A stretch of DNA of 39,311 bases. Origin: a virus. The number at the start of each line of letters is the position of its first letter. The stretch's first letter is position 1. Positions 1 to 39,311 of this stretch are shown in pieces. The position numbers were made by a program, and so were the translations under genes. The notes under the pieces were generated by a model. It saw only the letters and a list, made by a program, of their open reading frames with translations, had not been told where the DNA came from and ran no database searches. The stretch lies in UHGV virus genome UHGV-0361196, one strand, 5' to 3'.

Positions 1-274
1 CGAAACGTCAAAACCGCGGCTCCCGAAACTCAACGGGTGATGTTCTTTAAAAATCAGGATTTATTTCAGGCTCCGGCAATACGCATTTATGTGTTCTGTC
101 AGTCATCCGGCTGGCAGGTAATGAAAACGCAGGAACAGAAGGAGGAAAACACCGGAAAGCGTCAGATGCAGATATGAAAAAAAGCAGGTCAGGGACCTGC
201 TTAATCCACGCCGTAAGAATTGTGCGACCAATTTTGACGGCATTGTTAACCAATTTGTCATAAGGAATCCATTT

Positions 275-505
275 ATGACTGTAAGCATTGTTTCACCTTC
301 CGCAGCGGCTGTAAAGCCCCGCCGTCATCCCCGTTTCAGACGCGAAGACATCCCCGCGCCGGAACTTGACCCCGTGCTGAAAGCCTTCGGGCGACACATT
401 GCCCGGAGTTTTCGCCGGGGGCGTGGTGTACACATCCCCGCCATGAAAAACACGGCCTTCGGGCAGGTGCTCCGCACACTCGAACTGAAACGCGCTTTTA
501 ACTGA
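275..505 (+). CDS. hypothetical small basic protein (76 aa), flanking replicon
   Basis: ORF with AGGA about 10 nt upstream of the ATG; Arg-rich; no recognisable motif; weak call. Confidence 0.3.
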   Translation: MTVSIVSPSAAAVKPRRHPRFRREDIPAPELDPVLKAFGRHIARSFRRGRGVHIPAMKNTAFGQVLRTLELKRAFN

Positions 506-556
506 TGAGGTGAGCCGCCCCGCGAGGGGCGGCAACAGACGGAAGGAGAACATTTT

Positions 557-1918
557 ATGACATTAGCAGCAATCACCATGACCGCCCCGGAAGCCGCCAG
601 CCCTGTGCAGATGTACCGCGCGACCTACTCACCGGATGACAACAAACTGCGCCTGTATGCCGTGTCACGTCTTGACCCGGAGACGTATAAAAAAGTGCAT
701 GATGCCGGTTTCCGCTGGGCACCAAAACAGGCGCTGTTTGTCGCGCCAGCCTGGACACCGGGCCGGGAAGACGTGCTCCTCTCACTTGCCGGAGAGATTG
801 AGGATGAAGACAGCACGCTCGCTGAACGTCAGGAAGCACGGGCGGAGCGGTTTACCGGATACAGCGGAAAGCGGGCCAGTGAATCCGCACAGGCACTTGA
901 TGAAGTGGAAAGACTGGCCGCGATGATCCCGCCCGGTCAGCCCATTCTTGTGGGGCATCACAGCGAACGCCGCGCCCGTCGTGATGCGCAGCGTATTGAA
1001 AACGGCATGAAACGTGCCGTGATGCTCTTTGAACGTGCGGAATACTGGGAAGAACGTGCGCGGTCGGCACTGCTTCACGCGAAGTATAAAGAACGTCCGG
1101 ACGTTCGCTGGCGTCGTATCAAAAAAATCGAAGCTGATTTGCGCAAGGCTGAAAAGACCATCGCGCAGTCGCAGAAATATCTGACGATGTGGCGGGCTGA
1201 ATCGCTGGATCTGAATATGGCAAAACTCATCAGCAGTCATGACCATATCAGCGCCTGTTTCCCGCTGGATACGTATCCGCGCCCGGCAGAAAAAAGCCAG
1301 TATGAAGGAAGTCGATCGTTATGGTCGGCCCTGGATGATGACATCATCACCACGGAGCAGGCCCGCGAAATTGCGATCCGCTGTCATGAACGGCAGATTC
1401 AGCATCAACAACGCTGGGTTAACCACTATCAGAACCGCCTGATCTATGAGCGTGCCATGCTGGACGAAAGCGGCGGCGTGGTTACCCGGACACAGGATTT
1501 TGAGCCGGGCGGACAGGTTTTCAGCCGGGGCGAGTGGCTGACCATCATCCGCGTGAACAAAAGCAACGGGGCGGTGAGTTCAGTCACAACGCCGAATTAC
1601 AGTTTTCTCGGGTACAGCGGCACGATGAAAGTGACGCCCGATCGCATCACGGACTACAAAGCACCATCGGCAGAAGAGGCTGCCGTCGCCAGTCAGGCCG
1701 CGAAGCGTCCGCCGGTAGTCAACTATCCGGGGGAAGGTTTCCGGGAAATGACAAAGGCACAGTGGGCCGCCCTGCCCCGGGACTGTAAGGCCGTGCGCAG
1801 TGTGGCAGAGACAGAAGACCACGGGGCATACCGCTACCGCCGCACAATGGACAATAATTTCCGCCTGGTGAATGTGTATATCACCGACATGAAAATCACG
1901 GAAATCCCGCAGAAATAA
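557..1918 (+). CDS. hypothetical protein (453 aa), flanking replicon
   Basis: Long ORF with RBS GGAAGGAG 8 nt upstream of ATG 557; charged Arg/Glu-rich central region; no catalytic motif recognised; immediately upstream of the orphan methyltransferase. Confidence 0.7.
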   Translation: MTLAAITMTAPEAASPVQMYRATYSPDDNKLRLYAVSRLDPETYKKVHDAGFRWAPKQALFVAPAWTPGREDVLLSLAGEIEDEDSTLAERQEARAERFTGYSGKRASESAQALDEVERLAAMIPPGQPILVGHHSERRARRDAQRIENGMKRAVMLFERAEYWEERARSALLHAKYKERPDVRWRRIKKIEADLRKAEKTIAQSQKYLTMWRAESLDLNMAKLISSHDHISACFPLDTYPRPAEKSQYEGSRSLWSALDDDIITTEQAREIAIRCHERQIQHQQRWVNHYQNRLIYERAMLDESGGVVTRTQDFEPGGQVFSRGEWLTIIRVNKSNGAVSSVTTPNYSFLGYSGTMKVTPDRITDYKAPSAEEAAVASQAAKRPPVVNYPGEGFREMTKAQWAALPRDCKAVRSVAETEDHGAYRYRRTMDNNFRLVNVYITDMKITEIPQK

Positions 1919-1964
1919 GGTATATCCCCCCGGGAAATCCCCGGGGGATGACGGAGATAATGAT

Positions 1965-2528
1965 ATGCACAGTCAGTTAAAAGAACGTATCCGGCTGATG
2001 CGCGCAAGGCTGGATAACGCCGCGCCGGTTGCTGAAATCCGGGCTGAATCTCAGCTTTTTGTGACTCCTGCCCCGGTCTGTGATCGCCTGGTGATGCTGG
2101 CGGAGATCAGCAACCGTGATCACATTCTGGAACCCTCTGCCGGCACCGGGGCCATACTGCGGGCGATTCGTCATGTCGCGCCGGGGGCCATGTGTGATGC
2201 GGTGGAGATTAACAGCGGGCTGGTCCGGTATCTGCGGGATAATTTTAACGGTGTCAGGGTTCAGTGTGGCGACTTCATGGAATGGCAGCCGGTGCAGTAT
2301 TACAGCCGGGTTATCATGAATCCGCCGTTCAGCCACGGGCAGGATATCCGGCATATCCTGCGGGCCTTTTCCCTGTTGCGTCCGGGTGGCGTGCTGGTCG
2401 CCGTCTGTCTCAACGGACCACGCCAGCAGGAGAAGCTGTTACCGTTTTCTGACGTCCGCGAGGAGCTGCCGCGCGGCACGTTTGCTTATACCGATGTCCC
2501 GACGATGATTATTCGTCTGCGTGCCTGA
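1965..2528 (+). CDS. SAM-dependent DNA N6-adenine methyltransferase, orphan (no adjacent endonuclease)
   Basis: SAM-binding motif EPSAGTGA (aa 56-63) followed by catalytic NPPF (aa 119-122), the motif order of gamma-class amino-methyltransferases; RBS GGAG upstream. Confidence 0.7.
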   Translation: MHSQLKERIRLMRARLDNAAPVAEIRAESQLFVTPAPVCDRLVMLAEISNRDHILEPSAGTGAILRAIRHVAPGAMCDAVEINSGLVRYLRDNFNGVRVQCGDFMEWQPVQYYSRVIMNPPFSHGQDIRHILRAFSLLRPGGVLVAVCLNGPRQQEKLLPFSDVREELPRGTFAYTDVPTMIIRLRA

Positions 2529-2599
2529 TGACACAGGGCCGGCGGGAGGATAAATGCCTGTCTGCCCGCGCCGGGAAAAAACGCGCGCCGGTGGCGCTG

Positions 2600-2632
2600 A
2601 AAGGGGCCGCGCTCACGCGCCGCCCCTTTCAT
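2600..2632 (+). terminator. candidate intrinsic terminator downstream of methyltransferase gene
   Basis: 12-bp GC-rich stem (AAAGGGGCCGCGC / GCGCCGCCCCTTT, one mismatch) with loop TCAC, followed by TTTCATT. Confidence 0.45.
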
Positions 2633-2694
2633 TACGCGGACGTTCTGATGGGGGCTTCTGTTTCTTCATGCCTGTCATTTGTCTGTTACTTATA

Positions 2695-2870
2695 GAGAGG
2701 TAAATCATTTGATACTGCTGAAAAATCCGGGAGGAAAGTGGATCAAACGGGATTTGATGGGATAAAACAAACAGTTATGACGTAAAACAGTGTTATGCGC
2801 ACAACATGTGATTTGATACTACTGTCGCAAAGAAAGCTAAAAACGAAAAAATATTTGATACTACTGATTT
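2695..2870. repeat. left end (attL-like) with three putative transposase-binding repeats
   Basis: TTTGATAC at 2708..2715, 2812..2819 and 2854..2861 in the same orientation; L1 is about 100 bp from the adjacent L2/L3 pair, as in Mu attL; the reverse complement GTATCAAA recurs three times at the right end. Confidence 0.6.
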
Positions 2871-2895
2871 CTGCGATTTTAACGTTTTAAACAGG

Positions 2896-2932
2896 TTAAA
2901 AAACCAGCCGCGGGCTATTGGAATTAGCCCGC
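2896..2932 (-). terminator. candidate intrinsic terminator of repressor gene
   Basis: 8-bp stem GCGGGCTA / TAGCCCGC (2910..2917 / 2925..2932) with 7-nt loop; plus-strand A-run 2898..2903 gives a U-run after the hairpin on the minus strand; stem overlaps the stop codon. Confidence 0.4.
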
Positions 2933-3508
2933 CTTCGATTCTAAACTACTTGAGAGTTTATCGCTTTCAATTTCTGCCAAAATCTCTCTAACTCTTTCAT
3001 CCGATAAATGATCTAAAAGTAGAGCTGCTGCACGTTTTCGTCCTTCAAGTTGGATTAGTTCTTGATTCTCTGGTTCAAGTAACCGTGACAAGTACTTAGC
3101 TCCATTTAGCGCGAGGATTTTTGATAATCGCTCTGCCTCTGATGCTTCTAAAGCACTTAGTATAGCAAGAAGGCGCTGTAGCGTTATATCTAGGGGCAAT
3201 TGGACGTTTTCATCTATTTTAGGTGATATTGGTTCTATATCCTCCTTGCCAAAAACAAGCCAATCAATGCTCACCCCTTCTGCAAAAGCAATCTGACTAG
3301 CTACTTGTAGAGATGGTGTCGCATCTTTCTCAAAGTAGTTGTTAAGTGTTGAGAACGGTAGCCCCCACGCCTTCGCCACGGCAGTCTTGGAGCGCCCGCG
3401 CATTAGCATGGCTAGGCGCTCTTTAATGCTTTCTTTTTGAAACACAGGAAAAGAAAAATCACTTTCTTTTTCAGTGCTTCTTTCTTTTCTGTTAACCATA
3501 TGATTCAT
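2924..3508 (-). CDS. prophage repressor with XRE/lambda-cI-like HTH (Mu c functional equivalent)
   Basis: Only minus-strand gene in the prophage, divergent from ner as in Mu; HTH-like segment SKTAVAKAWGLPFSTLNNY followed by GVSIDWLVFG; start ambiguous (ATG 3508 or 3499 preferred over the GTG at 3559 that gives the 211-aa track ORF). Confidence 0.7.
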   Translation of the reverse strand: MNHMVNRKERSTEKESDFSFPVFQKESIKERLAMLMRGRSKTAVAKAWGLPFSTLNNYFEKDATPSLQVASQIAFAEGVSIDWLVFGKEDIEPISPKIDENVQLPLDITLQRLLAILSALEASEAERLSKILALNGAKYLSRLLEPENQELIQLEGRKRAAALLLDHLSDERVREILAEIESDKLSSSLESKAG

Positions 3509-3648
3509 AAAGAAATATCCTTTTGTAGATAAAAACCACCAAAGAAAGAGATAAAACACCTTTACTTTTCTTTTGTAGTGATCAAATATTTATCTGTAGA
3601 GATTATCCGGCGGTGTTATCCGCGCAGATAACTTTTAAGGATAAACGA
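3509..3648. promoter_or_regulatory. divergent early/repressor promoter-operator region
   Basis: Intergenic between divergent repressor and ner; repeated CTTTTGTAG-like motifs (about 3514..3530 and 3569..3585; variant TATCTGTAGAG about 3591..3601) and near-palindrome GTTATC-CGCGCA-GATAAC at 3615..3632; lies about 0.8-0.95 kb from the left end, where Mu has its operators and transposition enhancer. Confidence 0.5.
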
Positions 3649-3885
3649 ATGATGTCTATAAATGAAGTTGTTAAACAGGACTGGCACCCCGCGCATGTTG
3701 TCGCGGCGGTGCATGTAAAAGGTTTTACTTTACGCTCTCTGTCCATTGAAGCCGGTTTAAACCAGGATTCTTTAAAGAATGCCCTGTACCGCAAATGCCC
3801 AAAATATGAGCGCATTATTGCTGATGCTATTGGTGTTGCGCCGGAGGAGATCTGGCCCAGCCGTTACGCTCGTAAGGTGGCATAA
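3649..3885 (+). CDS. ner: Ner-like DNA-binding early regulator (Ner/Nlp family)
   Basis: C-terminal region ...ADAIGVAPEEIWPSRY resembles the Ner/Nlp family signature; RBS AGGA 9 nt upstream of ATG 3649; the track ORF from 3613 is probably a 5' over-extension. Confidence 0.8.
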   Translation: MMSINEVVKQDWHPAHVVAAVHVKGFTLRSLSIEAGLNQDSLKNALYRKCPKYERIIADAIGVAPEEIWPSRYARKVA

Positions 3886-3887
3886 AA

Positions 3888-5975
3888 ATGTTTGTATCAG
3901 TTAATGAGCTTGTAGGGTTACCAGGTATGCCGGGAACTGCGCAAGGGGTGCGGTATTCCATAAGGAAACTGGCCTCATCTGAGCATTTCAGGCGCAAACG
4001 TGCGGGTTCAAAAACCATTGAATACAGCATCGACTGCCTCCCTCCGGTTACACAACGGGCGTTACGTGAGCGACATGTAGCTCAACTGATGGCAAGCGCC
4101 CCGCGGGAGATAACTACCCAGCCTCCTGTAAAGCGTGAACGCAAACAAAATGTTGTACAGCCTGTTGAGGCATATCGCGGTTCGCCACAATTGGTAGAAG
4201 AGCGTCTGAATGCGCTTACGGAAAATCAACGTAAAGTTGCAGAAGCGCGCATTGCTCTTGTCTGTGAAGTTCTACGAATTAGCCAGGAGCCGGGATTCAG
4301 TTGTGCCAGCGCTATACGTTTTATTGTGTCGCGGTTAGCGCAGGGTAACCTGGAAGAACGCCTGGAATCTTTGGTCATTACTGCTAATGCCCGTAAAGGA
4401 AAAGAGCGAACTCTGAGCGCAATTACGCTCAAACGTTGGATAGCTGCGTTTAACAAAGCACAGAATGCCGCAGAACGACTGCTGTTACTGGCACCAGGAA
4501 AGCGCGACGAAATAAAACCGGAAGAAATTAGCTGGCTGCCTGAATTTCTGGCGCAGTATCGTCAGGCTAACGGCAGGCCTATGTCTGAAGCCTATGAGGA
4601 TTTTGTCGCTGATTGGCAGCGTCGCCATGCGGACGAACCATACATGCTGGAGGTGATGCCTTCCTATGATGTTGTCCGGTATGCCATGAAAAAACTGCCG
4701 GAAGTGGTGAAACAAAAAGGGCGCGTTACCGGCAGTGAATACCGTCAGCTTGAAGGATTCACCCGCCGCGACTGGACAGCTATGCCGGTGAATTATGTCT
4801 GGATTGGTGACGGTCACGGTATGAAGCTGAAATGTGCACATCCGATCCACGGGCGTCCATTCTCACCGGAAGTTACATTTGTGATCGACGGTGGAACCCG
4901 GTTTGTTGTTGGCTGGAGTCTTGACCTTGCCGAGAACGTGTTCGCCGTTGCCGGTGCGATACAGCACGGCATTCGCAACCACGGAAAACCGTTTCTGTAT
5001 TACTCGGATAATGGTTCTGGTGAAACGGCTGACATACTGGACAAAGAGGTCGTGGGTATTCTGCCCCGCCTGGGGATTAAACACCCTACCGGTATTGCCG
5101 GTAATCCACAGGGGCGCGGCATTATTGAACGCCTGAACCGGACACTGCCGATGCGTATAGCCAGGAGGTATCGCACCTATTTTGGCAAGGGTGCTGACCG
5201 GGAATCGTTGCGTGTACTTAACCGTGATCTGCGTTCAGCGTTTAACGCCATGCAACAGGACAAGCCTCTGAACGACCGCCAGAAAGCTGCAATGCGCGAG
5301 CTACCATCGTGGGCGGAGCTTATTGAGGCTATTCGTGAAGGCGTGGAATGGTACAACAACCGCCCGCATTCTGAGCTGCCAATGAAACCGAACGGGCGGC
5401 ATTACAGCCCGGCAGAGTTCAGAAAAAAACGCCTGGCAGAAGAAGACACCGAAATTGAGTGGCTGAGTGATCTTGAGCTGCGCGACATGTTCCGCCCGAT
5501 GGTGGAACGCCCGGTAAGACGGTGCGAAATTCAGTGGCTGAACAATATTTACTACGCGCCGGAGTTGCGTGACGAACACGGTCGCAAAGTACTTATCAGT
5601 TATGACATTCATGACGCCGAGCGAATTACGGTACGTCGCAAGGACGGCAGCTTTATCTGTGAGGCGATATGGAACGGCAATAAACGCACAGCCTTTGCTG
5701 TCAGTGCTGAATATCACAAACAACAGCAGCGTATTAAAGGAATGCGCAAACGTGCTGAGGAAAAAATTCGTGATGCTGAGGATGAAGGCATTCAGATACT
5801 GGAGCACAAACAGGCTGAACCCTGGCTGGATAATGTTTATCGCCCGGTTGGCAATACGGTAACCATCCAGCAACAGGATTATGAGGAGGATTACGACGAA
5901 GATTATGAACGCGATTTCAGGCTGGGTTTGCAGAAGCTTGTAGCCATACAGGAACAGGATGATCCGCTGGCCTGA
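3888..5975 (+). CDS. DDE transposase, MuA family (divergent from Mu A)
   Basis: 695 aa; N-terminal enhancer-binding-like domain (VNELVGLPGMPGT...KTIEY) and candidate DDE residues in IGDGHG, YYSDNGSG and GIIERLNRTL, aligned by eye to Mu A catalytic core; acidic C-terminus; RBS AAGGTGG. Confidence 0.9.
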   Translation: MFVSVNELVGLPGMPGTAQGVRYSIRKLASSEHFRRKRAGSKTIEYSIDCLPPVTQRALRERHVAQLMASAPREITTQPPVKRERKQNVVQPVEAYRGSPQLVEERLNALTENQRKVAEARIALVCEVLRISQEPGFSCASAIRFIVSRLAQGNLEERLESLVITANARKGKERTLSAITLKRWIAAFNKAQNAAERLLLLAPGKRDEIKPEEISWLPEFLAQYRQANGRPMSEAYEDFVADWQRRHADEPYMLEVMPSYDVVRYAMKKLPEVVKQKGRVTGSEYRQLEGFTRRDWTAMPVNYVWIGDGHGMKLKCAHPIHGRPFSPEVTFVIDGGTRFVVGWSLDLAENVFAVAGAIQHGIRNHGKPFLYYSDNGSGETADILDKEVVGILPRLGIKHPTGIAGNPQGRGIIERLNRTLPMRIARRYRTYFGKGADRESLRVLNRDLRSAFNAMQQDKPLNDRQKAAMRELPSWAELIEAIREGVEWYNNRPHSELPMKPNGRHYSPAEFRKKRLAEEDTEIEWLSDLELRDMFRPMVERPVRRCEIQWLNNIYYAPELRDEHGRKVLISYDIHDAERITVRRKDGSFICEAIWNGNKRTAFAVSAEYHKQQQRIKGMRKRAEEKIRDAEDEGIQILEHKQAEPWLDNVYRPVGNTVTIQQQDYEEDYDEDYERDFRLGLQKLVAIQEQDDPLA

Positions 5976-5982
5976 ATAAAAA

Positions 5983-6006
5983 AACAGTCCGCGGGAACGG
6001 ACTGTT
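5983..6006 (-). terminator. hairpin between A and B, terminator-like on the minus strand
   Basis: 9-bp stem AACAGTCCG / CGGACTGTT with 6-nt loop; a run of 7 A precedes it on the plus strand (U-run after the hairpin on the minus strand); no T-run after it on the plus strand. Confidence 0.35.
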
Positions 6007-6048
6007 AAACGAAGGAAACAAAGCTGATTTGAATAAACGGAGAATAAT

Positions 6049-6981
6049 ATGACCGATATTAATGATGTTTTCAACACGATTAACACACTTATTACTGACG
6101 GCGTAAAAACACAAAGCGCTATTGCTAAAGAAGCGGGGGTGTCGGAGGCCACTCTTTCTGAACTTCGCAAAGGCCGTTACAAAGGTGATACCGAAGGGAT
6201 GCATGACAAATTACTGATGTGGCATCAGAGCTGGCAAAAAAGTCTGGAGTTACCTGGCGCACCACAACTTGTGGAAACACAAACCCTCCGTGATTTGCGC
6301 GAGCTGTTTCAGACCGTGCGTGTTATGGGCTGTATCAGCGTTCTGGTTGGTGTGCCGGGTGTTGGTAAAACCGTTGCGGCCCGTGAATACAGTAACCGTG
6401 TATCTAATACCTGGATGGTGACCCTTTCCCCTGCACACTCAACAGTGACTGAGTGTCTGCTGGAGCTGGCAGACGCGCTGGGAATTGATAATCCGCAAAG
6501 AAATAAAGGCGCATTGACCCGCGCCATTCGCAAAAAACTGAATGGCACACGCGGTCTGGTTATTGTGGATGAAGCTGACCACCTGAGCATGGACGGGCTG
6601 GAGCAGTTACGCGCCATTCAGGATGCAACCGGCGTCGGGATGGTATTGATTGGCAACCCACACCAGTTAGCCAAAGCCACACACCGGGGAACAGATGACC
6701 TTGCACGTTTGTTCAGTCGTTTCGCCAGAACAAAGCAACTACGTAAAGCCAAAAAGGCTGACGTGGTGGCAATTGCGAAAGCCTGGGGCATTGAGGGCGA
6801 AGATGAATTATCACTCATGCAGAGCATCGCGGAAAAACCAGGTGCATTACGTGTATTAACTCATACGCTGAATCAGGCGTGGCTGGCTGCCAGCGGGAAA
6901 GGCGTTCCTCTATCCAAAGGCTACATTAAAGCAGCTTTTAAAGAGGTTTACAGCAACCCGAAATTACTGAACTGGTGGTAA
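6049..6981 (+). CDS. MuB-like AAA+ ATPase transposition target-capture protein
   Basis: 310 aa; Walker A GVPGVGKT and Walker B VIVDEADH; N-terminal HTH-like region; directly after transposase gene as in Mu; RBS GGAGA. Confidence 0.9.
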   Translation: MTDINDVFNTINTLITDGVKTQSAIAKEAGVSEATLSELRKGRYKGDTEGMHDKLLMWHQSWQKSLELPGAPQLVETQTLRDLRELFQTVRVMGCISVLVGVPGVGKTVAAREYSNRVSNTWMVTLSPAHSTVTECLLELADALGIDNPQRNKGALTRAIRKKLNGTRGLVIVDEADHLSMDGLEQLRAIQDATGVGMVLIGNPHQLAKATHRGTDDLARLFSRFARTKQLRKAKKADVVAIAKAWGIEGEDELSLMQSIAEKPGALRVLTHTLNQAWLAASGKGVPLSKGYIKAAFKEVYSNPKLLNWW

Positions 6982-6992
6982 GGGGATAAATA

Positions 6993-7220
6993 ATGATGTC
7001 ACGAAATATAAAAATGGCAACGGATGCGCAGAACTGGTTACAGGCGCGCGGGAGTCATGTAAATGAATCATATCTCGGCGTGGCGCGTCCGATTCTTGAA
7101 ATCACTTACCCACCGGTGGAACTGGTAAAAAACGCGGTCAGAATTATGGAGCATAAGTCCGGGGTGGCCCGTTCTGTATGGACGGCCCGTCTTAATGGTT
7201 GCCAGATTATCTGGAGATAA
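6993..7220 (+). CDS. hypothetical early protein (75 aa), positional equivalent of Mu kil
   Basis: First ORF after B; function not established from sequence. Confidence 0.5.
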
Positions 7221-10207: not shown

Positions 10208-10892
10208 AGACTGGGGTATTGATAAAAGTTGTGGCCGGGACGTCCTGGTGTACAAAAACTGTAGCGTGATTGAAGGAGAAGATGCCTGGCAGGTTCTGGA
10301 TATACTTCGTTCTGCTTTATGCAGAGCTGGCTATGTTACGCCAGCGTCAGTTAATGGCGGAACTGCCACTACCTGTATCAGAAATCAACTTTATAGTTTT
10401 TATACAGCCTACAACCGATGGTTAAAGAATGGGGCAATGGAGACGGGCGATGATGTATTTACCCGGGCTGCCGGATTATGTGCCAATGCTTACGATTATT
10501 TTGAATCAATCGGAGCAGACAGCGAGGCTGCGCTAGAACAATTACATGCGGATTTTGTCGCGAGTGGGCTGGATGAATCCCTGCCATTTAATGTAGATAA
10601 CGTGCACTACCATGATGAATGCCTACATGACAGATGCCACCTGAATTCAGCACGTGTGGCATGGGTTGAAAAACACTGTATTAGTTCTGATTCAGAAATA
10701 ACGGGGAAAAAGACAGTCGGTGAAAATTCGTATTCGTGGCTGGGGAAATTTACCACGGTGAAACAGGAATGCCCGACCTGCGGTAATGAAAACCCTGAAT
10801 ATCTGAAAGAGTGCCCTCATTGTGGCGGGCAGAAATGCAACCACTGCGATATGGGCGATGACACAGCGTGCATGAATTGTGAAGGTGAGTGA
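10197..10892 (+). CDS. Cys-rich protein with C-terminal tandem zinc-ribbon motifs (about 231 aa)
   Basis: Four CxxC motifs in the last 40 aa (CPTCG, CPHCG, CNHCD, CMNCE) plus a His/Cys cluster HYHDECLHDRCH; GTG 10197 preceded by GGAGG at 7 nt is preferred over the overlapping ATG at 10134. Confidence 0.5.
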   Translation: MKFEDWGIDKSCGRDVLVYKNCSVIEGEDAWQVLDILRSALCRAGYVTPASVNGGTATTCIRNQLYSFYTAYNRWLKNGAMETGDDVFTRAAGLCANAYDYFESIGADSEAALEQLHADFVASGLDESLPFNVDNVHYHDECLHDRCHLNSARVAWVEKHCISSDSEITGKKTVGENSYSWLGKFTTVKQECPTCGNENPEYLKECPHCGGQKCNHCDMGDDTACMNCEGE

Positions 10893-11552: not shown

Positions 11553-12104
11553 ATGAGCCGCACATCCCTGATTAAATTAATCCATGTCGCCCGTCGGGAG
11601 CTACAACTCGACGACGACACTTACCGCGCCTTTCTGATGCAGAAAACGGGCAAAACCAGTTGCCGCGAGCTGACGGTAACGCAACTGGAACAGGTGCTCG
11701 ATGCCATGAAAGAACGCGGCTTTAAGAAGCTGATTAAACATCCACGTCGCCGCTTTAAGGGGTATGTCACGCCCCGCGAGAAGGTGTATAAAATCTGGCA
11801 GCAGATGGCAGAAGACGGTTTTATTACCGATGGCGGTGATGTGGCGCTGGACAGATATGTTCAACGCCTGACCACGAAACGTAATGGCGGACAGGGTGTT
11901 TCCACGCTGGCGTGGTGTCATGGCGACACCCTGTTGATTGTTCTCGAAACTCTCAAGCAGTGGCATATCCGCTGTATTCGTGAAGCCTTTTCCCGTCACG
12001 GGCTTCCGTTGCCGGTCAGTCCGTCCGGGCGTGAACTGCGCGGCTATGATGCCATGACGGCGGCTTATGCCCATGCCAGAAAGACACGGAGGATGGCACA
12101 ATGA
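11553..12104 (+). CDS. gemA: GemA-like early protein (Mu gp16 family)
   Basis: 183 aa beginning MSRTSLIKLIHVARRELQLDDDTYRAF, which I recognise as the Mu GemA family; sits immediately upstream of mor as in Mu; RBS GGAGG. Confidence 0.75.
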   Translation: MSRTSLIKLIHVARRELQLDDDTYRAFLMQKTGKTSCRELTVTQLEQVLDAMKERGFKKLIKHPRRRFKGYVTPREKVYKIWQQMAEDGFITDGGDVALDRYVQRLTTKRNGGQGVSTLAWCHGDTLLIVLETLKQWHIRCIREAFSRHGLPLPVSPSGRELRGYDAMTAAYAHARKTRRMAQ

Positions 12105-12490
12105 CGGAAGATTTATTTGGTGATTTGCAGGATGACACCATCCTGGCACATCTTGACAATCCCGCAGAGGATGCGTCACGCTTTCCGGCACTGCTGGCGG
12201 AGCTGAACGATTTACTGCGCGGGGAGTTGTCCCGGCTGGGTGTTGATCCTGCCCATTCACTGGAGATTGTTGTGGCTATCTGTAAGCATCTGGGTGGCGG
12301 TCAGGTCTACATTCCACGCGGTCAGGTTCTGGACTCGCTGATTCGGGATTTGCGTATCTGGAATGATTTTAACGGTCGCAACGTCAGCGAACTGACCACC
12401 CGTTATGGTGTCACTTTCAATACGGTTTACAAGGCCATTCGCCGGATGCGACGGCTGAAATACCGCCAGTACCAGCCCTCACTTCTGTAA
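12101..12490 (+). CDS. mor: Mor, middle-operon transcription activator
   Basis: 129 aa, Mor/C family with C-terminal HTH (...NGRNVSELTTRYGVTFNTVYKAIRR); near-identical to Mu Mor as recalled; paralogous to C at 13283..13705. Confidence 0.9.
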   Translation: MTEDLFGDLQDDTILAHLDNPAEDASRFPALLAELNDLLRGELSRLGVDPAHSLEIVVAICKHLGGGQVYIPRGQVLDSLIRDLRIWNDFNGRNVSELTTRYGVTFNTVYKAIRRMRRLKYRQYQPSLL

Positions 12491-12786: not shown

Positions 12787-13141
12787 GCGTTCTGCTCGTC
12801 AGTGGCCTGATTTTTTATCGGTGGTATTACTGGCGCTGTTATTGTGGATAAGTCTGTTTTGTGGCTGGCGCGCGCTGATGTTTTGCTGTGCCTCGGTTTT
12901 CAGTGTTGCTTTATGTGTTGCCGCTGATTGTCTGGATGCGCTGATAATGAGCTGCCGGGTGCCTGAACATTTTGCCCGGTTCGTCTGGCCTCTGACCTGG
13001 CTGGGGAGTCTGTCCGGGCTGGGATTAGCCGTGATGGCAACGTCTCAACTGAAAACGGGTCCTGAGCATGTCATCTGGGCGCTGGCCGGATTGCTGACGT
13101 TCTGGCTCTCCTTTCGTTTTCGCGCTCGTCTGTTCGGGTAA
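12779..13141 (+). CDS. multi-pass membrane protein, holin candidate (about 120 aa)
   Basis: ATG 12779 preceded by GGGAGA; three to four hydrophobic segments; lies between mor and C, where Mu carries a small membrane protein. Confidence 0.5.
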   Translation: MSERSARQWPDFLSVVLLALLLWISLFCGWRALMFCCASVFSVALCVAADCLDALIMSCRVPEHFARFVWPLTWLGSLSGLGLAVMATSQLKTGPEHVIWALAGLLTFWLSFRFRARLFG

Positions 13142-13150
13142 AGGGGCACC

Positions 13151-13270
13151 ATGTACAGAAAATTCAGTGATGAATGTTTCGGGCCGTCCACGCTGATGAG
13201 TGCGATAAAAGTGATTGCCCTTGTGGTTCTGATAACCATCAGTGCCGTGGTGTATCTTTCTGTCTGTTAA
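13151..13270 (+). CDS. small single-pass membrane peptide (39 aa), not in ORF track
   Basis: ATG 13151 preceded by AAGGGG at 7 nt; translation MYRKFSDECFGPSTLMSAIKVIALVVLITISAVVYLSVC has one TM helix; fills the gap between flanking genes. Confidence 0.4.
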   Translation: MYRKFSDECFGPSTLMSAIKVIALVVLITISAVVYLSVC

Positions 13271-13282
13271 CCGGGGGAAAAT

Positions 13283-13705
13283 ATGCAGCATGATTTATTT
13301 GAACACGATCCGGCAATTCGCCAGTTAATCGGACATATTGATAACATCCCGGCCCCGGAACTGGAATCACGCTGGCCCCGTTCGGTGGTTGATCTGATTG
13401 ATGTTCTGGAAAACGAACTGAAACGCCAGAACGTCAGCAATCCCCGTGAGCTTGCCCGTAAACAGGCCGTTGCCCTGTCCTGTTTTCTGGGCGGACGGCA
13501 GTTTTACATCCCCTGCGGCGATACGATCCTGACCGCGTTACGTGACGATTTGCTTTACTGCCAGTTTAATGGTCGTAACATGGAAGAACTGCGTCGCCAG
13601 TACCGCCTGTCCCAGCCGCAGATCTACCAGATTATTGCCCGCCAGAGAAAGCTGCATACACGACGTCATCAGCCTGATCTGTTCTCACCTGAAAGCCCAA
13701 AATAA
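13283..13705 (+). CDS. C: C, late-gene transcription activator (Mor/C family)
   Basis: 140 aa, paralogous to Mor (...NGRNMEELRRQYRLSQPQIYQIIARQRK); near-identical to Mu C as recalled; RBS GGGGGA. Confidence 0.9.
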   Translation: MQHDLFEHDPAIRQLIGHIDNIPAPELESRWPRSVVDLIDVLENELKRQNVSNPRELARKQAVALSCFLGGRQFYIPCGDTILTALRDDLLYCQFNGRNMEELRRQYRLSQPQIYQIIARQRKLHTRRHQPDLFSPESPK

Positions 13706-13727
13706 CCGGCATCCTGCCGGTTATTTC
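13702..13727 (+). terminator. candidate terminator/attenuator after C
   Basis: Perfect 10-bp stem ATAACCGGCA / TGCCGGTTAT with 3-nt loop, followed by TTATTTCC. Confidence 0.45.
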
Positions 13728-13796
13728 CTGTCACCATAATCCCGCACCTGCCATCTGATTTTTTAGACTGCCATCAGCGCATTTTTTCAGGGAAGC

Positions 13797-14315
13797 ATGA
13801 TGGCGGGGATACCAAAAAAACTGAAAGCCGCACTGCTGGCGGCAACGATTGCCGGTGGCGGTGTGGGTGGTTATCAGGAAATGACCCGTCAGTCTCTGAT
13901 CCATCTGGAAAATATCGCTTATATGCCTTACCGCGATATTGCCGGTGTGCTTACGGTCTGTGTGGGACATACCGGGCCGGATATCGAAATGCGCCGTTAC
14001 AGCCATGCGGAGTGTATGGCTCTTCTCGACAGTGATTTAAAACCGGTTTATGCGGCAATCGATCGTCTTGTCAGGGTGCCGCTGACGCCATATCAGAAAA
14101 CGGCGCTGGCAACGTTTATTTTCAACACCGGTGTTACCGCATTCAGTAAATCAACGCTGCTGAAAAAACTCAATGCCGGTGATTACGCCGGAGCGCGTGA
14201 CCAGATGGCCCGCTGGGTGTTTGCCGCAGGCCATAAATGGAAAGGACTGATGAACCGTCGCGAAGTGGAAATGGCAATCTGGAATATCAGGGGGGCGGAT
14301 GACCTTCGCCAGTAA
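13797..14315 (+). CDS. lys: SAR endolysin (T4-lysozyme-like muramidase with N-terminal signal-anchor-release segment)
   Basis: N-terminal Gly/Ala-rich weakly hydrophobic segment LKAALLAATIAGGGVGG; catalytic pattern E-x8-D-x5-T in ENIAYMPYRDIAGVLT; matches Mu endolysin as recalled. Confidence 0.9.
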   Translation: MMAGIPKKLKAALLAATIAGGGVGGYQEMTRQSLIHLENIAYMPYRDIAGVLTVCVGHTGPDIEMRRYSHAECMALLDSDLKPVYAAIDRLVRVPLTPYQKTALATFIFNTGVTAFSKSTLLKKLNAGDYAGARDQMARWVFAAGHKWKGLMNRREVEMAIWNIRGADDLRQ

Positions 14316-14685
14316 AAGTTTACTTCTGGCAGCCGTGTTTGCCGCCGTTCTGTCCGGGGTGTTGTGGCACAGGCTGGACAGCACCCGCCACGATAACCAG
14401 ACGCTGCGCCGTAAATTACAGACGGAGCAACAGGCCCGCCACACTGCTGAATGGTTGTTACACAGTCAGGAACAGACGATGCAGGTATTTTCCGCTATCC
14501 GTGCCGCAAATCGTGCCGCGCGGCTGGAAGATGAGACAGAACATCATGATGCCAAACAAAAAATTACAACCGCTATTACCGGTGACAATTGCAGCACTCG
14601 TCCTGTGCCTGCCGTTGCTGCTGACAGGTTGCGGGAACTCGAAAAACGCACCCGTGCCATCGGTGGTGATCCTTCCCGAAACTGA
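14299..14685 (+). CDS. i-spanin (Rz-like)
   Basis: N-terminal TM helix SLLLAAVFAAVLSGVLW followed by charged helical periplasmic domain; overlaps the endolysin 3' end. Confidence 0.65.
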   Translation: MTFASKSLLLAAVFAAVLSGVLWHRLDSTRHDNQTLRRKLQTEQQARHTAEWLLHSQEQTMQVFSAIRAANRAARLEDETEHHDAKQKITTAITGDNCSTRPVPAVAADRLRELEKRTRAIGGDPSRN

Positions 14686-14887
14686 TGCAGAACTGACGGA
14701 AGCAACGCCCGTTCCGCCCATGCCACAGCCCCTGACGTGGGGAGCATCCCTTCTCTGGAATGCTGACCTGCTGATGGCGCTCGGGCAGTGCAACCGCGAC
14801 AAGGCATCAGTCCGGGAACAGGAGACCCGGAGGAAAGAAATTTATGAACGAAGACCAGAACCGGGCGGTGGCGCTGCTGCTCGCTGA
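14546..14887 (+). CDS. o-spanin (Rz1-like outer-membrane lipoprotein), overlapping the i-spanin in another frame
   Basis: Lipoprotein signal MMPNKKLQPLLPVTIAALVLCLPLLLTGC with lipobox LLTGC; Pro-rich mature part; begins inside the i-spanin gene and extends beyond it. Confidence 0.6.
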   Translation: MMPNKKLQPLLPVTIAALVLCLPLLLTGCGNSKNAPVPSVVILPETDAELTEATPVPPMPQPLTWGASLLWNADLLMALGQCNRDKASVREQETRRKEIYERRPEPGGGAAAR

Positions 14888-15038
14888 ACTCTGGCAGGGG
14901 AATACCCGTGATATTCCCCGTCCGGCGGCGTATGACCCGCCTGTATTGTGTGCCGGTTGCGGTCGTGAGCTGCGGCCTGATGTGCTGAGACAGCAGCCAA
15001 TGGCGAACTACTGCCACTGGTGCCGTGGAGCAGAATAA
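14844..15038 (+). CDS. small Cys-rich protein (64 aa)
   Basis: Strong RBS GGAGGAAAG; Cys pairs CAGCG and CHWC. Confidence 0.5.
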   Translation: MNEDQNRAVALLLAELWQGNTRDIPRPAAYDPPVLCAGCGRELRPDVLRQQPMANYCHWCRGAE

Positions 15039-21179: not shown

Positions 21180-21375
21180 ACTGAATCAGACATGAAATCA
21201 GCCGCACAGATTTTTTAAAACGCGCCACGGGATTTTTAAACCGGTATTTAACGGTGTATGAATCCCGTTTTATCTTCCTTCCACTTTCTTTCTCCAGTAC
21301 TCAAATAGCATAACCCCAGATTTTCCCGCACCTCCCGCAAACTGACTGCTCACAAACCATGATGAGCAGCAGGAC
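21180..21375. other. G-I intergenic region at the genome centre: candidate strong gyrase site and late promoter
   Basis: 196-bp non-coding gap about 18.5 kb from the left end of a 36.6-kb element, the position of the Mu central gyrase site; contains CCCGCACCT (21325..21333), also found upstream of lys. Confidence 0.35.
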
Positions 21376-22461
21376 ATGAAAAAACACGCGATTGGCATTG
21401 CCGCACTGAATGCGCTGTCCATTGACGATGACGGCTGGTGCCAGTTATTGCCTGCCGGTCATTTCAGTGCCCGTGATGGTCGTCCGTTTGATGTGACAGG
21501 CGGTCAGGGGTGGTTCATCGACGGTGAGATTGCCGGGCGTCTGATTGAAGGCGTTCGCGCGCTCAACCAGGACGTGCTGATTGATTACGAGCATAACCAG
21601 CTACGTAAGGACAAAGGATTACCCCCGGAACAACTCGTCGCGGCTGGCTGGTTTAACGCCGATGAAATGCAGTGGCGTGAAGGTGAAGGGTTATTTATCC
21701 ACCCACGCTGGACGGCGGCGGCCCAGCAGCGCATCGATGACGGCGAATTTGGTTATCTCTCTGCGGTTTTTCCGTATGACACCGCCACCGGTGCGGTGCT
21801 GCAAATCCGCCTTGCTGCGCTGACCAATGACCCCGGTGCCACCGGCATGAAAAAGCTGACCGCACTGGCGGCAGACCTTCCCGACATCCTTCAACAGGAG
21901 AACAAACCCATGAATGAAACGCTGCGCAAGCTGCTTGCGCGTCTTGGGGTGACGGTCCCCGAAAATGCAGACATCACCGATGAACAGGCCAGCGCGGCCC
22001 TGAGTGCGCTTGATGCGCTCGAAACAGATGCCGGAAAAGTGGCGTCGTTATCCGCCGAACTGGAAAAGGCACAGAAAGCCGCCGTTGACCTGACGAAATA
22101 CGTCCCGGTGGAAAGCTACAACGCCCTGCGTGATGAACTGGCACAGGCGACTGCACTAAGCGCCACAGCCAGCCTGAGCGCCGTTCTGGACAAGGCGGAA
22201 CAGGAAGGCCGCATTTTCAAAAGCGAACGTGCCTATCTGGAACAGCTTGGCGGTCAGATTGGCGTGGCGGCACTGTCGGCACAGCTTGAGAAAAAACAGC
22301 CCATCGCTGCGTTATCTGCCATGCAGACCACCACAGCGAAAATCCCGTCGCAGGAAAAAACGGCTGTGGCGGTGCTGTCTGCTGATGAACAGGCAGCAGT
22401 GAAGGCGCTCGGCATTACAGAGGCTGAGTATCTGAAAATGAAACAGGAACAAGAAAAATGA
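21376..22461 (+). CDS. I: head protease / scaffold protein (Mu I-like)
   Basis: 361 aa; N-terminal protease-like domain and C-terminal Ala/Glu/Lys-rich helical scaffold-like region. Confidence 0.85.
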   Translation: MKKHAIGIAALNALSIDDDGWCQLLPAGHFSARDGRPFDVTGGQGWFIDGEIAGRLIEGVRALNQDVLIDYEHNQLRKDKGLPPEQLVAAGWFNADEMQWREGEGLFIHPRWTAAAQQRIDDGEFGYLSAVFPYDTATGAVLQIRLAALTNDPGATGMKKLTALAADLPDILQQENKPMNETLRKLLARLGVTVPENADITDEQASAALSALDALETDAGKVASLSAELEKAQKAAVDLTKYVPVESYNALRDELAQATALSATASLSAVLDKAEQEGRIFKSERAYLEQLGGQIGVAALSAQLEKKQPIAALSAMQTTTAKIPSQEKTAVAVLSADEQAAVKALGITEAEYLKMKQEQEK

Positions 22462-29713: not shown

Positions 29714-31201
29714 ATGTTTGAAGATGCTTTAAATGCCGTTAATGCTGTCCGGGATAAAATCAGCGGTGGTAAGAAAACAACCGGCAAAGGCACGTTTCGT
29801 AACGTGCCGTTTCTCGTCATCGAGGAGCAAAAACAGGCTGGCGGACGTCGCCTGGTTAAACGCGAGTACCCGTTACGTGATACCGGCGGCGTCAATGACC
29901 TGGGGAAAAAGCTTCGCTCCCGTACATTCAGCGCCTGCATTCTGAACAGCAACGCAGAAACAGCCAGAGATGAAGCGGGTGCGCTGATGGATGCTCTTGA
30001 TGCTCCGGGTGGCGGTGAGCTGGTACATCCTGATTTCGGCACTGTGGACGTCATGGTGGATTCATGGGAATGCCGCACTAAAGCGGATGAACTGAATTAT
30101 TACGCGTTCACCGTTACCGTTTATCCGTCGTTGCAGGATACTGCCCCGGACTCAGAGACAGACACCAGTGCAGCCGTACCGGCACAGGCCGTTGCTGTAA
30201 CCGGTTCTCTGGGAGATACGCTGTCCTCTGTCTGGCAGACCGTAAAAGATGGCACTGCGGCGGCAACCGCCGTGATGGAAGCTGTAACCGGTGTCATCGA
30301 TGATATCAGTGATGCGGTGGACAATCTGGGGGTTACGCAGACTGTCAGCGGTCTGATGGGATCGCTTTCTGCGATGAAAGGCTCTGTGACCAGCCTGATT
30401 AACCAGCCTGCCATGCTGGCCTCCTCGCTGATGGGGGCGCTGTCCGGCGTTTCATCGTTATGCGATACCCGGACAGCATTTTCCACATGGAACCGTCTGG
30501 CGCAGCGATTCGAACGTCGCCATGCCGCCACCGCAGGCAGACAGGGGACAATCACAACCTCGTACAACAGTCCGGTTGCAGAAAAAAATATTGCCACACT
30601 GAACTACGTCATGCTGGCAGCAGCACAGACATACCGGGCGGAGGCAGCAAGCCAGGCACTGACTGCGGCACTGGATTTCAGTCGCCGGATGGATAATGCC
30701 GCCCGTGCACCTGTACTGGATGCCCCGTCCACCACAACCGGCACAGCCAGCGGGGCCAGCAGCACATCCGCTACCGTCACACAGGGACAGTTACAGTTAA
30801 CTGCCATAACCCCGGACGGCGGTTTTTCACAGGTATCCTTTTCAGACAGTGGTACAGCCACGCCCCCGGTATTTGAAAGTGTGTCCGATATCGGAAAAAC
30901 AGCCGCCATGCTGGGGGCAGCGCTGGATACCGTCATTCTGACGGCATCTGAGCAGGGTTTTTCGACAGACAGCGCTCAGCTTACGCAACTGCGCCTGCTG
31001 GTTGTTGCTGACCTGGAAAAACGCGGACTGCAACTGGCGGGCAGTGAAATGCACAGCCTGCCGGAGACGATGCCCGCAGTGGTGGCCCTGTACCGTTACA
31101 CAGGAAACAGCCGGAACTGGCAACGGCTGGCCCGCAGGAATGGCAGCAGCAACCCGTTATTTGTTCCCGGTGGTGTCAGTACTGAGGTGATTAATGAGTA
31201 A
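29714..31201 (+). CDS. N: tail/baseplate protein (Mu N-like, DNA circularisation protein family)
   Basis: 495 aa; Ala/Thr/Ser-rich C-terminal half; assigned by position after the tape measure. Confidence 0.8.
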
Positions 31202-38092: not shown

Positions 38093-38291
38093 CTGGTTGT
38101 TCGGAAAACGTTACTGGCAGGCTGGAGGGGTCTGTATATTCGACCTTCTGCGCATAGAGCATCCACTCGGTTAATTTTTGTTTATTCTCGTCGGAAATGA
38201 TACCCAGCCGTAGCGAACGCATATAGAAAACGACGATCGAATCAATTGAATCGATCGGTAATACAGATCGATTATGCCCCAATAACCACAC
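38088..38291 (-). pseudogene. relic of an inverted second tail-fibre-assembly gene (G-segment remnant)
   Basis: Minus-strand 67-aa ORF whose last 30 aa (SDENKQKLTEWMLYAQKVEYTDPSSLPVTFSEQPE) mirror the Tfa C-terminus pattern D-E-x4-L-x2-W-x2-Y-x3-V-x3-D; convergent with the intact chaperone gene; no variable fibre part or invertase follows. Confidence 0.35.
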
Positions 38292-38320
38292 TCAACCCAT
38301 GATGTTTTTTAAGATAGTGG
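38231..38320 (+). promoter_or_regulatory. mom operon promoter region with Dam-methylation (GATC) cluster
   Basis: Three GATC sites within 35 bp (38235..38238, 38253..38256, 38266..38269), then T6 tract 38305..38310 and candidate -10 TAAGAT; matches the known Mu mom promoter architecture; RBS AAAGGAGG before com. Confidence 0.6.
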
Positions 38321-38343
38321 CGAATTGATGCAAAGGAGGTGAG

Positions 38344-38532: not shown

Positions 38533-39190
38533 GTATGAAGGCCAGATTGTTGGCTATGGTTCAAAGGAGCTGCGCGTTGAAACCATATCCTGCTGGCTGG
38601 CCCGCACAATTATTCAGACAAAGCACTATTCCCGCCGTTTTGTGAATAACTCTTACCTCCACCTGGGAGTATTCAGCGGACGCGATCTGGTTGGCGTTCT
38701 CCAGTGGGGATATGCCCTTAACCCCAACTCAGGTCGTCGTGTCGTGCTTGAAACGGATAACCGGGGCTATATGGAGTTGAATCGCATGTGGCTACACGAC
38801 GACATGCCCCGCAACTCTGAATCACGGGCCATCAGCTACGCGCTGAAAGTTATCAGATTACTGTATCCGTCAGTGGAGTGGGTTCAGTCATTTGCTGACG
38901 AACGCTGCGGATGCGCAGGCGTTGTGTATCAGGCGTCGAATTTTGATTTTATTGGCAGCCATGAAAGCACGTTCTACGAGCTGGATGGTGAGTGGTATCA
39001 CGAGATAACGATGAACGCAATTAAGCGCGGTGGACAACGAGGCGTGTATTTACGGGCTAATAAAGAGCGTGCCGTGGTGCACAAATTTAATCAGTATCGC
39101 TACATCAGGTTCCTGAACAAGCGAGCAAGGAAGCGGCTAAATACTAAGCTATTCAGGGTTCAGCCATACCCTAAAAGCACTCCCGATTAG
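38453..39190 (+). CDS. mom: Mom, DNA modification protein (adenine modification, anti-restriction)
   Basis: ORF overlapping the 3' end of com in another frame, as in Mu; matches Mu Mom as recalled; the true start is probably downstream of 38453, near the com stop. Confidence 0.85.
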
Positions 39191-39268
39191 TATCAAATAA
39201 TTTTTCGTTGTGCCGTTTTGGGTGGTATCAAAAAAAATTCAAAACGGTATCAAATGATTTTGCGCGCT
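39186..39268. repeat. right end (attR-like) with three putative transposase-binding repeats
   Basis: GTATCAAA at 39190..39197, 39225..39232 and 39247..39254, the reverse complement of the left-end TTTGATAC motif; the outermost 14-mer AAATCATTTGATAC is shared by both ends in inverted orientation. Confidence 0.6.
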
Positions 39269-39278
39269 TTATACTGAT

Positions 39279-39311
39279 GTTGTTGTTCCTGCTACTGCTA
39301 CTGCTACTGCT
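39279..39311. repeat. short microsatellite in right flank
   Basis: (GTT)3 at 39279..39287 followed by (GCTACT)3 at 39291..39308, running to the window edge. Confidence 0.5.

Follow-up and report, generated by a model that had tools for sequence, protein, structure and literature searches.

The window, by which we mean the whole stretch of 39,311 nucleotides that was analysed (UHGV virus genome UHGV-0361196, one strand), contains a prophage of Mu type. Its late region is about 98% identical to that of Mu overall, and positions 13000-15000 show 98.3-98.4% identity to phages Mu and D108. The Mu gene order is kept, with mor (12101-12490) followed by C, lys (13797/13800-14315) and the head protease/scaffold gene I (21376-22461). 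The C protein shares 139 of its 140 residues with Mu C and is 100% identical to D108 C; the cognate activator is encoded within the same prophage as the late promoters, just upstream of the lys promoter Plys. In the case of lys, the Mu annotation takes the second ATG (13800) as the start. The gene I open reading frame, downstream of the promoter PI, has its start codon at 21376 and gives a Pfam match to Mu-like_Pro.

The prophage is a mosaic, as seen at window positions 1-7000 and 39150-39311, and the first ~7 kb, on the repressor/transposase side, lack DNA similarity at the level of Mu. Canonical Mu attL/attR ends were searched for in the window to place the prophage and were not found. End repeats that differ from those of Mu are present, with ATTTGATAC at 2707, 2811 and 2853 and inverted copies at ~39198 and ~39255. 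All this suggests a transposition module other than that of Mu, and a host flank from 1 to ~2690.

Between C and lys, a hairpin (Table 1) corresponds to the TransTermHP terminator 10383-10406 in AF083977. A simple terminator scan did not call it, because its T tail is weak. On one side the hairpin shares sequence with the C stop codon, and on the other it extends to or into the upstream edge of the part of Plys that C protects, so that the predicted middle-transcript terminator and the late promoter Plys abut.

Mapping of the four late promoters

The late-promoter features of GenBank AF083977 (citing PMID 2522923) map onto window positions 13723-13789 (Plys), 21297-21363 (PI), 30793-30859 (PP) and 38269-38335 (Pmom). 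Over 92 nt each, i.e. the 67-bp feature plus 25 nt downstream, three differences from Mu were counted in Plys, one in PP and none in PI or Pmom. The promoters are placed like their Mu counterparts, preceding the lys, I, P and com-mom units, whose open reading frames were identified by Pfam. An earlier note on this DNA had flagged the interval 13725-13775, which corresponds to -51 to -1 of Plys, and had proposed it and the region upstream of gene I as candidate Mu late promoters that depend on the C activator. This assignment is supported, as both regions map onto the AF083977 Plys and PI features and the C protein is that of Mu in all but one of 140 residues.

The four promoters could be aligned without gaps, with the motif cCATAAyCCC at index 11-20 and the -10 hexamers at index 41-46. 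Index 53 was taken as +1 using three published anchors: the C dyad centre at -43.5 (PMC2582627), the Mor dyad at -51 to -36 (PMC4287176) and the tin7 substitution at -14 (PMC3378877). The -10 hexamers then lie at -12 to -7, and transcription would start at ~13776 (Plys), ~21350 (PI), ~30846 (PP) and ~38322 (Pmom), with these positions estimated to be good to 1-2 nt.

The earlier note had also described these promoters as having poor -35 elements, and this was borne out: a sigma-70 consensus promoter scan found no -35/-10 pair at the Plys or PI regions. At the nominal -35 position Plys reads CCCGCA and PI reads CCCAGA, both non-consensus. Such a recognizable -10 without a usable -35 at Plys and PI matches the description in PMC2582627.

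Table 1. Window coordinates of the genes, promoter elements and repeats at and around the late promoters.
Feature	Position	Strand	Basis or content
Gene C, late transcription activator, Mor/C family, 140 aa	13283..13705	+	ORF; Pfam Mor PF08765, E = 9e-34
Hairpin after C, perfect 12-nt arms AAATAACCGGCA/TGCCGGTTATTT, 3-nt loop	13700..13726	+	inverted repeat; predicted middle-transcript terminator
Plys 16-bp imperfect dyad, putative C-binding element, -51..-36	13725..13740	+	position inferred from published centre -43.5 and four-promoter alignment
Plys conserved late-promoter core CCATAATCCCG, -42..-32	13734..13744	+	in-register identity with PI, PP and Pmom
TCCCGCACCT in Plys, -36..-27, spans nominal -35 CCCGCA	13740..13749	+	sequence match
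Plys T6 tract, -17..-12	13759..13764	+	sequence; in register with Pmom T6
Plys -10 hexamer TAGACT	13764..13769	+	alignment with other three promoters
lys, SAR endolysin	13797..14315	+	ORF; Pfam Phage_lysozyme, E = 1e-37
PI C-binding dyad (-51..-36) and conserved core GCATAACCCCA (21308-21318)	21299..21318	+	alignment, matrix
TCCCGCACCT second copy, in PI spacer, -26..-17	21324..21333	+	sequence match
PI -10 hexamer CAAACT	21338..21343	+	alignment
PP	30795..30839	+	dyad 30795-30810, core CCATAACCCCG 30804-30814, -10 TATCCT 30834-30839
Pmom	38271..38315	+	dyad ATTATGCCCCAATAAC 38271-38286, T6 38305-38310, -10 TAAGAT 38310-38315; com ATG 38344
Pmom proposed -35 ACCACA	38285-38290	+	-35 and 19-bp spacing from PMC2582627

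Some smaller features were observed within these promoters. In Plys, CTGCCATC occurs twice, at 13748-13755 (-28 to -21) and 13768-13775 (-8 to -1), 20 bp apart; the repeat is perfect because T stands at -22 here where Mu has C. In the case of PP, window position 30823 (-23) is T where Mu has C, leaving a T5 run at -23 to -19 of the spacer. Downstream of PI, a 7-bp inverted repeat (CTGCTCA/TGAGCAG, 21346-21369) has its beginning near the predicted +1 of gene I; folded, it might give a hairpin at the 5' end of the transcript, shortly before the ribosome-binding site.

The element shared by the late promoters

In register, the element common to the four promoters is cCATAAyCCC at -42 to -33, located 26 bp upstream of the -10. 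ATAA and yCCC occupy -40 to -33 in Plys, PI and PP, and Pmom reads CCA at -35 to -33. This element combines the right half of the 16-bp dyad published for C binding with the adjoining CCC; in Plys, the ATAA of this right half is found at 13736-13739. The left half is degenerate in Plys and PI, in line with the ‘imperfect dyad’ of PMC2582627. According to the same study, the imperfect 16-bp dyad is centred at -43.5, the C footprint covers about -55 to -30, and the mutationally critical region of Plys comprises -52 to -34 plus the -10 region (PMC2582627). The consensus of the C site has been given as TTAT-N5-6-ATAA (PMC12867686).

When a matrix over -51 to -7 was trained on three promoters and the fourth was scored, the promoters left out ranked 4, 6, 34 and 4 of 78,490 positions, in support of the alignment. 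With the matrix trained on all four, no fifth late-promoter site was found in the window. A matrix of the box ranks the four promoters 1-4 of 78,600 positions, which holds by construction, as it was trained on them. Altogether, we infer from the alignment that the true shared signature of the late promoters is the upstream ATAAyCCC box, as part of the C-binding dyad at -43.5.

The 10-bp match between Plys and PI

The earlier note had singled out a different element, CCCGCACCT, upstream of lys and gene I as a mark of candidate C-dependent promoters. The repeat itself is there: the 9-mer has exactly two copies in the window, both on the + strand, at 13741-13749 and 21325-21333. The distance from the end of the copy to the start codon is 48-51 nt for lys (ATG at 13797/13800) and 43 nt for gene I (ATG at 21376). 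The match extends by one base to the 10-mer TCCCGCACCT (Table 1), which is the only 10-bp match between Plys and PI. A 10-bp match between lys and I, as well as the T6 common to lys and mom, was already pointed out by Swapna et al. 2015 (PMC4461284); since TCCCGCACCT is the sole match of this length, both observations of the earlier note had already been published.

With the promoters aligned by their -10 hexamers, the two copies are 10 bp apart, the 9-mer being located at -35 to -27 in Plys and at -25 to -17 in PI. In Plys, the final base of the dyad and the conserved CCC make up the beginning of the 10-mer, and only the first two bases of the Plys 9-mer fall within the critical region of -52 to -34. 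The PI 10-mer is located downstream of the region that C protects at Plys and Pmom (about -55 to -30). Neither PP nor Pmom contains a copy within two mismatches. From these positions, the Plys 9-mer would represent the tail of the box (CCC) plus unconserved spacer, and the PI 9-mer would represent spacer sequence, one helical turn further downstream than in Plys.

Genome-wide, 0.32 copies of the 9-mer would be expected where two are present, and two copies were reached in 5 of 100 shuffles. The chance that any pair of the four 67-bp promoters shares a 9-mer at any offset was 0.07-0.13. For the 10-mer, the same chance was marginal (0.018 with shuffled promoters, 0.040 with random window segments).

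The PI copy is also the first unit of a direct repeat of TCCCGCA (21324-21330 and 21333-21339, 9 bp apart), the second unit of which overlaps the -10 hexamer. TCCCGCA is not enriched in the window (11 copies vs 7.3 expected). The possibility that PI has another C half-site 10 bp downstream was considered and rejected as unsupported, since this position scores -2.5 bits with the box matrix (rank 1962 of 78,600).

Comparison with related prophages

A DNA search of the phage collection with the Plys region returned only relatives of at least 97% identity, and a protein search of the collection with C returned relatives at 95% identity or above and below 40%, with none in between. The diverged set consisted of one intermediate relative (Erwinia tracheiphila), taken from species-representative genomes, and of lineages from IMG/VR. 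Six lineages were compared, namely that of the window and five further Mu-like prophage lineages, and their promoters were aligned on the -10 hexamers. The C proteins of the five further lineages are 54-67% identical, and most of their recognition region is conserved.

At both Plys and PI, AA-y-CCC starts exactly 26 bp upstream of the -10 in all six lineages. Plys and PI of the Erwinia-type groups have 17 bp in common in register (AGATACCGGAATCCCCG or AGATACCGGAATCACCT). Mean pairwise identity at Plys was 0.78 for -43 to -33, 0.33 for -32 to -20 and 0.78 for the -10, and the corresponding values at PI were 0.63, 0.37 and 0.69. The columns of the 9-mer at Plys read CCCGCACCT, CCCCGATAC, CACCTCTCT, CCCTGACCA, CCCACACCC and CCCCGCCAG in the six lineages, with only CCC (-35 to -33) conserved; at PI, the same columns contain unrelated strings across lineages. 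Among 22 close relatives, the Plys copy of the 10-mer is invariant, and the PI copy is altered at two positions in one natural variant (L021).

As the 10-mer is out of register and only CCC is conserved among the relatives, the 10-bp identity is most likely a coincidence specific to the Mu lineage rather than an operator. The claim that CCCGCACCT marks C-dependent promoters thus did not hold: it is found in two of the four promoters, 10 bp out of register, and is unconserved in the diverged relatives. The motif search that the earlier note had proposed, within this element and in related phages, did recover the 9-mer twice in the window, but in relatives its columns are unconserved beyond CCC.

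Two further observations were made in these genomes. In the Erwinia tracheiphila prophage (L005, 10537-10610), the 5' end of the endolysin gene contains an in-frame 9-bp tandem repeat, CCCCAAAAG, with ~8 copies in L005 and L028 and 1-2 copies in L027 and L029, amounting to a variable-length PKS repeat at the lysin N-terminus. Upstream of PI (window ~21190-21260, L005 18100-18180), a repeated TTTAAA(C/A)CG is found near the annotated strong gyrase site of Mu, and this region is recognizably conserved in lineages with C 54-67% identical.

The T-tract of the Plys spacer

The earlier note had described a T6 tract followed by a hexamer upstream of both lys and com. The tracts are present and the layout is in register, but the sixth T belongs to the hexamer. 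In TTTTTTAGACT (13759-13769, Plys) and TTTTTTAAGAT (38305-38315, Pmom) the -10 begins at the sixth T, and the run is therefore ‘T5 + TAnnnT’ at both promoters and not T6 followed by a separate hexamer. Plys and Pmom share TTTTTTA in exact register (-17 to -11). In the window, TTTTTTARNNT occurs 4 times vs 0.62 expected, a number reached in none of 100 shuffles. A second T6 is found in the lys leader at 13782-13787 (+7 to +12), just before the ribosome-binding site.

In the comparison set, a run of 5-8 T touches or nearly touches the Plys -10 in four of the six lineages (L036 and L030 are without a tract), and the T fraction at -19 to -13 across lineages is 0.69, with the rest of the spacer diverged to 33% identity. 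In the case of Pmom, all 22 copies of the Mu type have T6-TAAGAT unchanged, even those of a class with ~12 substitutions nearby. T6 was not found in the other promoter classes that precede Mom proteins 84-97% identical to that of the window.

These other classes are varied. In L055-L078, ~100-300 nt upstream of mom, several unrelated promoter classes precede Mom proteins in the same identity range. The L055-type promoter has AAATACCCCCAG and no T6, those of L076 and L078 have CCATAAT/CC boxes and no T6, and that of L077 has TTAT-N6-ATAA with a T5 shifted to -27 to -23. The GATC clusters upstream of mom persist in all L055-L078 classes.

At Pmom, the T stretch has been described as intrinsically curving the DNA and thereby adding to the dependence on the activator; it is reported to be a negative, distortion-conferring element that C relieves, and the tin7 mutation is a -14 substitution that creates an extended -10 (PMC3378877). 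In the case of Plys, RNA polymerase binds without C, unlike at Pmom (PMC4461284), and a role of the Pmom type can therefore not be assumed for the Plys tract. The T-tract adjoining the -10 is a real spacer feature, in register with Pmom, and is probably under selection at Plys too.

Alternative explanations

The 10-bp identity between Plys and PI could be read in other ways than as a coincidence. If TCCCGCACCT were a functional cis element of both promoters, it might offer a second, helically phased contact to the C oligomer or to RNA polymerase (sigma region 4/beta flap) and tune both promoters. The low chance of an exact match among four promoters (0.018-0.040), the offset of exactly 10 bp, which places both copies on the same helix face, and the unchanged Plys copy in the 22 close relatives are consistent with such a contact; so are the partial resemblance to ATAA of an ATTT upstream of the PI copy and the cryo-EM preprint, in which the C tetramer covers nearly three helical turns. 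However, the same preprint has the tetramer extending upstream of the -35 region and not downstream, and the critical region of Plys ends at -34 (PMC2582627). PP is activated at the same kinetic step (PMC4461284) and yet is without a copy within two mismatches, as is Pmom. Moreover, the 10-mer is unconserved at Plys and PI in the five other lineages, where the upstream box is conserved, L021 carries its two substitutions in the PI copy, and the site 10 bp downstream in PI has the negative matrix score given above. We therefore regard a functional 10-mer as very improbable. A functionless relic of an exchange or duplication between Plys and PI in the Mu lineage would explain why the match is limited to the Mu clade, and the tandem TCCCGCA of PI, with its units 9 bp apart, suggests a local duplication. 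On the other hand, the similarity of the two copies does not continue into their flanks, TCCCGCA is commonplace in the window, and with these data a relic is indistinguishable from plain chance, so that we consider this origin quite improbable.

Regarding the T-tract, the question is whether the likeness of Plys to Pmom is itself coincidental, the T6 of Plys being an AT-rich spacer beside the -10 without a role of its own. This agrees with the binding of polymerase to Plys without C, by which the tract does not exclude polymerase there (PMC4461284), with the missing tract at Plys in two of the six lineages and with the missing T6 in the other Pmom classes. It is at odds with the excess of TTTTTTARNNT over shuffled sequence, the exact register of the Plys and Pmom copies, the T run kept at Plys in four lineages despite the divergence of the remaining spacer, and the invariance of the tract in the Mu-type Pmom copies. 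Weighing both sides, a tract without a role is possible but somewhat doubtful. A bolder proposal is that the Plys T-tract may be not only selected but also mechanistically required in Mu-like lysis control. If true, the tract might silence the promoter as long as C has not acted, or provide the geometry in which C drives open-complex formation. Less likely still, the 10-mer, offset by one turn, would be contacted on one helix face by the C tetramer or by polymerase in both Plys and PI. The proposal appears unlikely to us.

Discussion

Our main reading, with a probability of roughly 0.93, is that 13725-13775 would be the core of Plys, one of four C-dependent late promoters (with PI, PP and Pmom) of a Mu-type prophage, with the upstream box as their signature and the 10-mer not being an operator. 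The earlier note is partly supported in that it was right on the promoters and wrong on the operator.

The promoters, the C operator, the 10-bp match between lys and I and the T6 of lys and mom are all already in the literature, and little is added here to promoter biology. The late promoters have been known since 1989, when Margolin, Rao and Howe reportedly determined their starts in Mu by S1 mapping, and a mutational study of Mu Plys was reportedly published by Chiang and Howe in 1993. A modest addition is the exact 26-bp distance between box and -10 at Plys and PI across lineages with C 54-67% identical. Another is the tendency of the Plys T-tract beside the -10 to persist where the remaining spacer does not, which gives comparative support for selection. 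As an annotation, the analysis describes a prophage with an intact Mu-type late circuit (mor, C and four C-dependent promoters) and gives its coordinates at the base level.

In Mu, all four late promoters are strictly C-dependent (PMC4461284, PMC2582627). By in vitro transcription, late transcription starts ~7 nt downstream of the -10, solely with C. The effect of C at Plys, PI and PP is to speed up open-complex isomerization, and at Pmom it enables recruitment and escape (PMC4461284). In a cryo-EM preprint, C binds as a tetramer that contacts the alpha C-terminal domain, sigma region 4 and the beta flap. C also interacts with the sliding clamp, as described in a 2026 paper (PMC12867686).

Because the promoters and the activator are essentially identical to those of Mu, the same mechanism is presumed for this prophage. 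C, whose gene lies just upstream and is expressed from the middle transcript, would bind the 16-bp dyad centred at -43.5 and protect about -55 to -30, and the sigma-70 holoenzyme would use the -10 TAGACT in the absence of a usable -35. The change from closed to open complex would be sped up by C at Plys, PI and PP, and at Pmom C would be needed for polymerase recruitment and promoter escape.

Comparison with known systems

The closest known system is Mu Plys, which occupies the same locus between C and lys and is identical from -53 to +39 except at -22, +3 and +5. Box, T6 and -10 are all the same, and the activator matches in 139 of 140 residues. The three point differences affect neither the box nor the T6 nor the -10; the early region and the ends of the prophage, in contrast, are not those of Mu. 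In the case of Mu PI, the window promoter is identical over the 92 nt compared and carries the second copy of the 10-mer, although 10 bp closer to the -10 than in Plys.

Mu Pmom resembles Plys in the T6 at -17 to -12 that abuts a TAnnnT hexamer and in the position of the C box. Unlike Plys, it has a proposed -35 (ACCACA) with 19-bp spacing and a good TTAT-N6-ATAA dyad, as well as a divergent competing promoter and regulation by Dam/OxyR and Fis, and it needs C for recruitment and escape, whereas C acts at isomerization at Plys.

Finally, the Mu middle promoter Pm is similarly organized, with a Mor/C-family activator paralogous to C, a dyad at -51 to -36 centred at -43.5, and a -10 with no -35 (PMC4287176). 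[quoted passage not shown]
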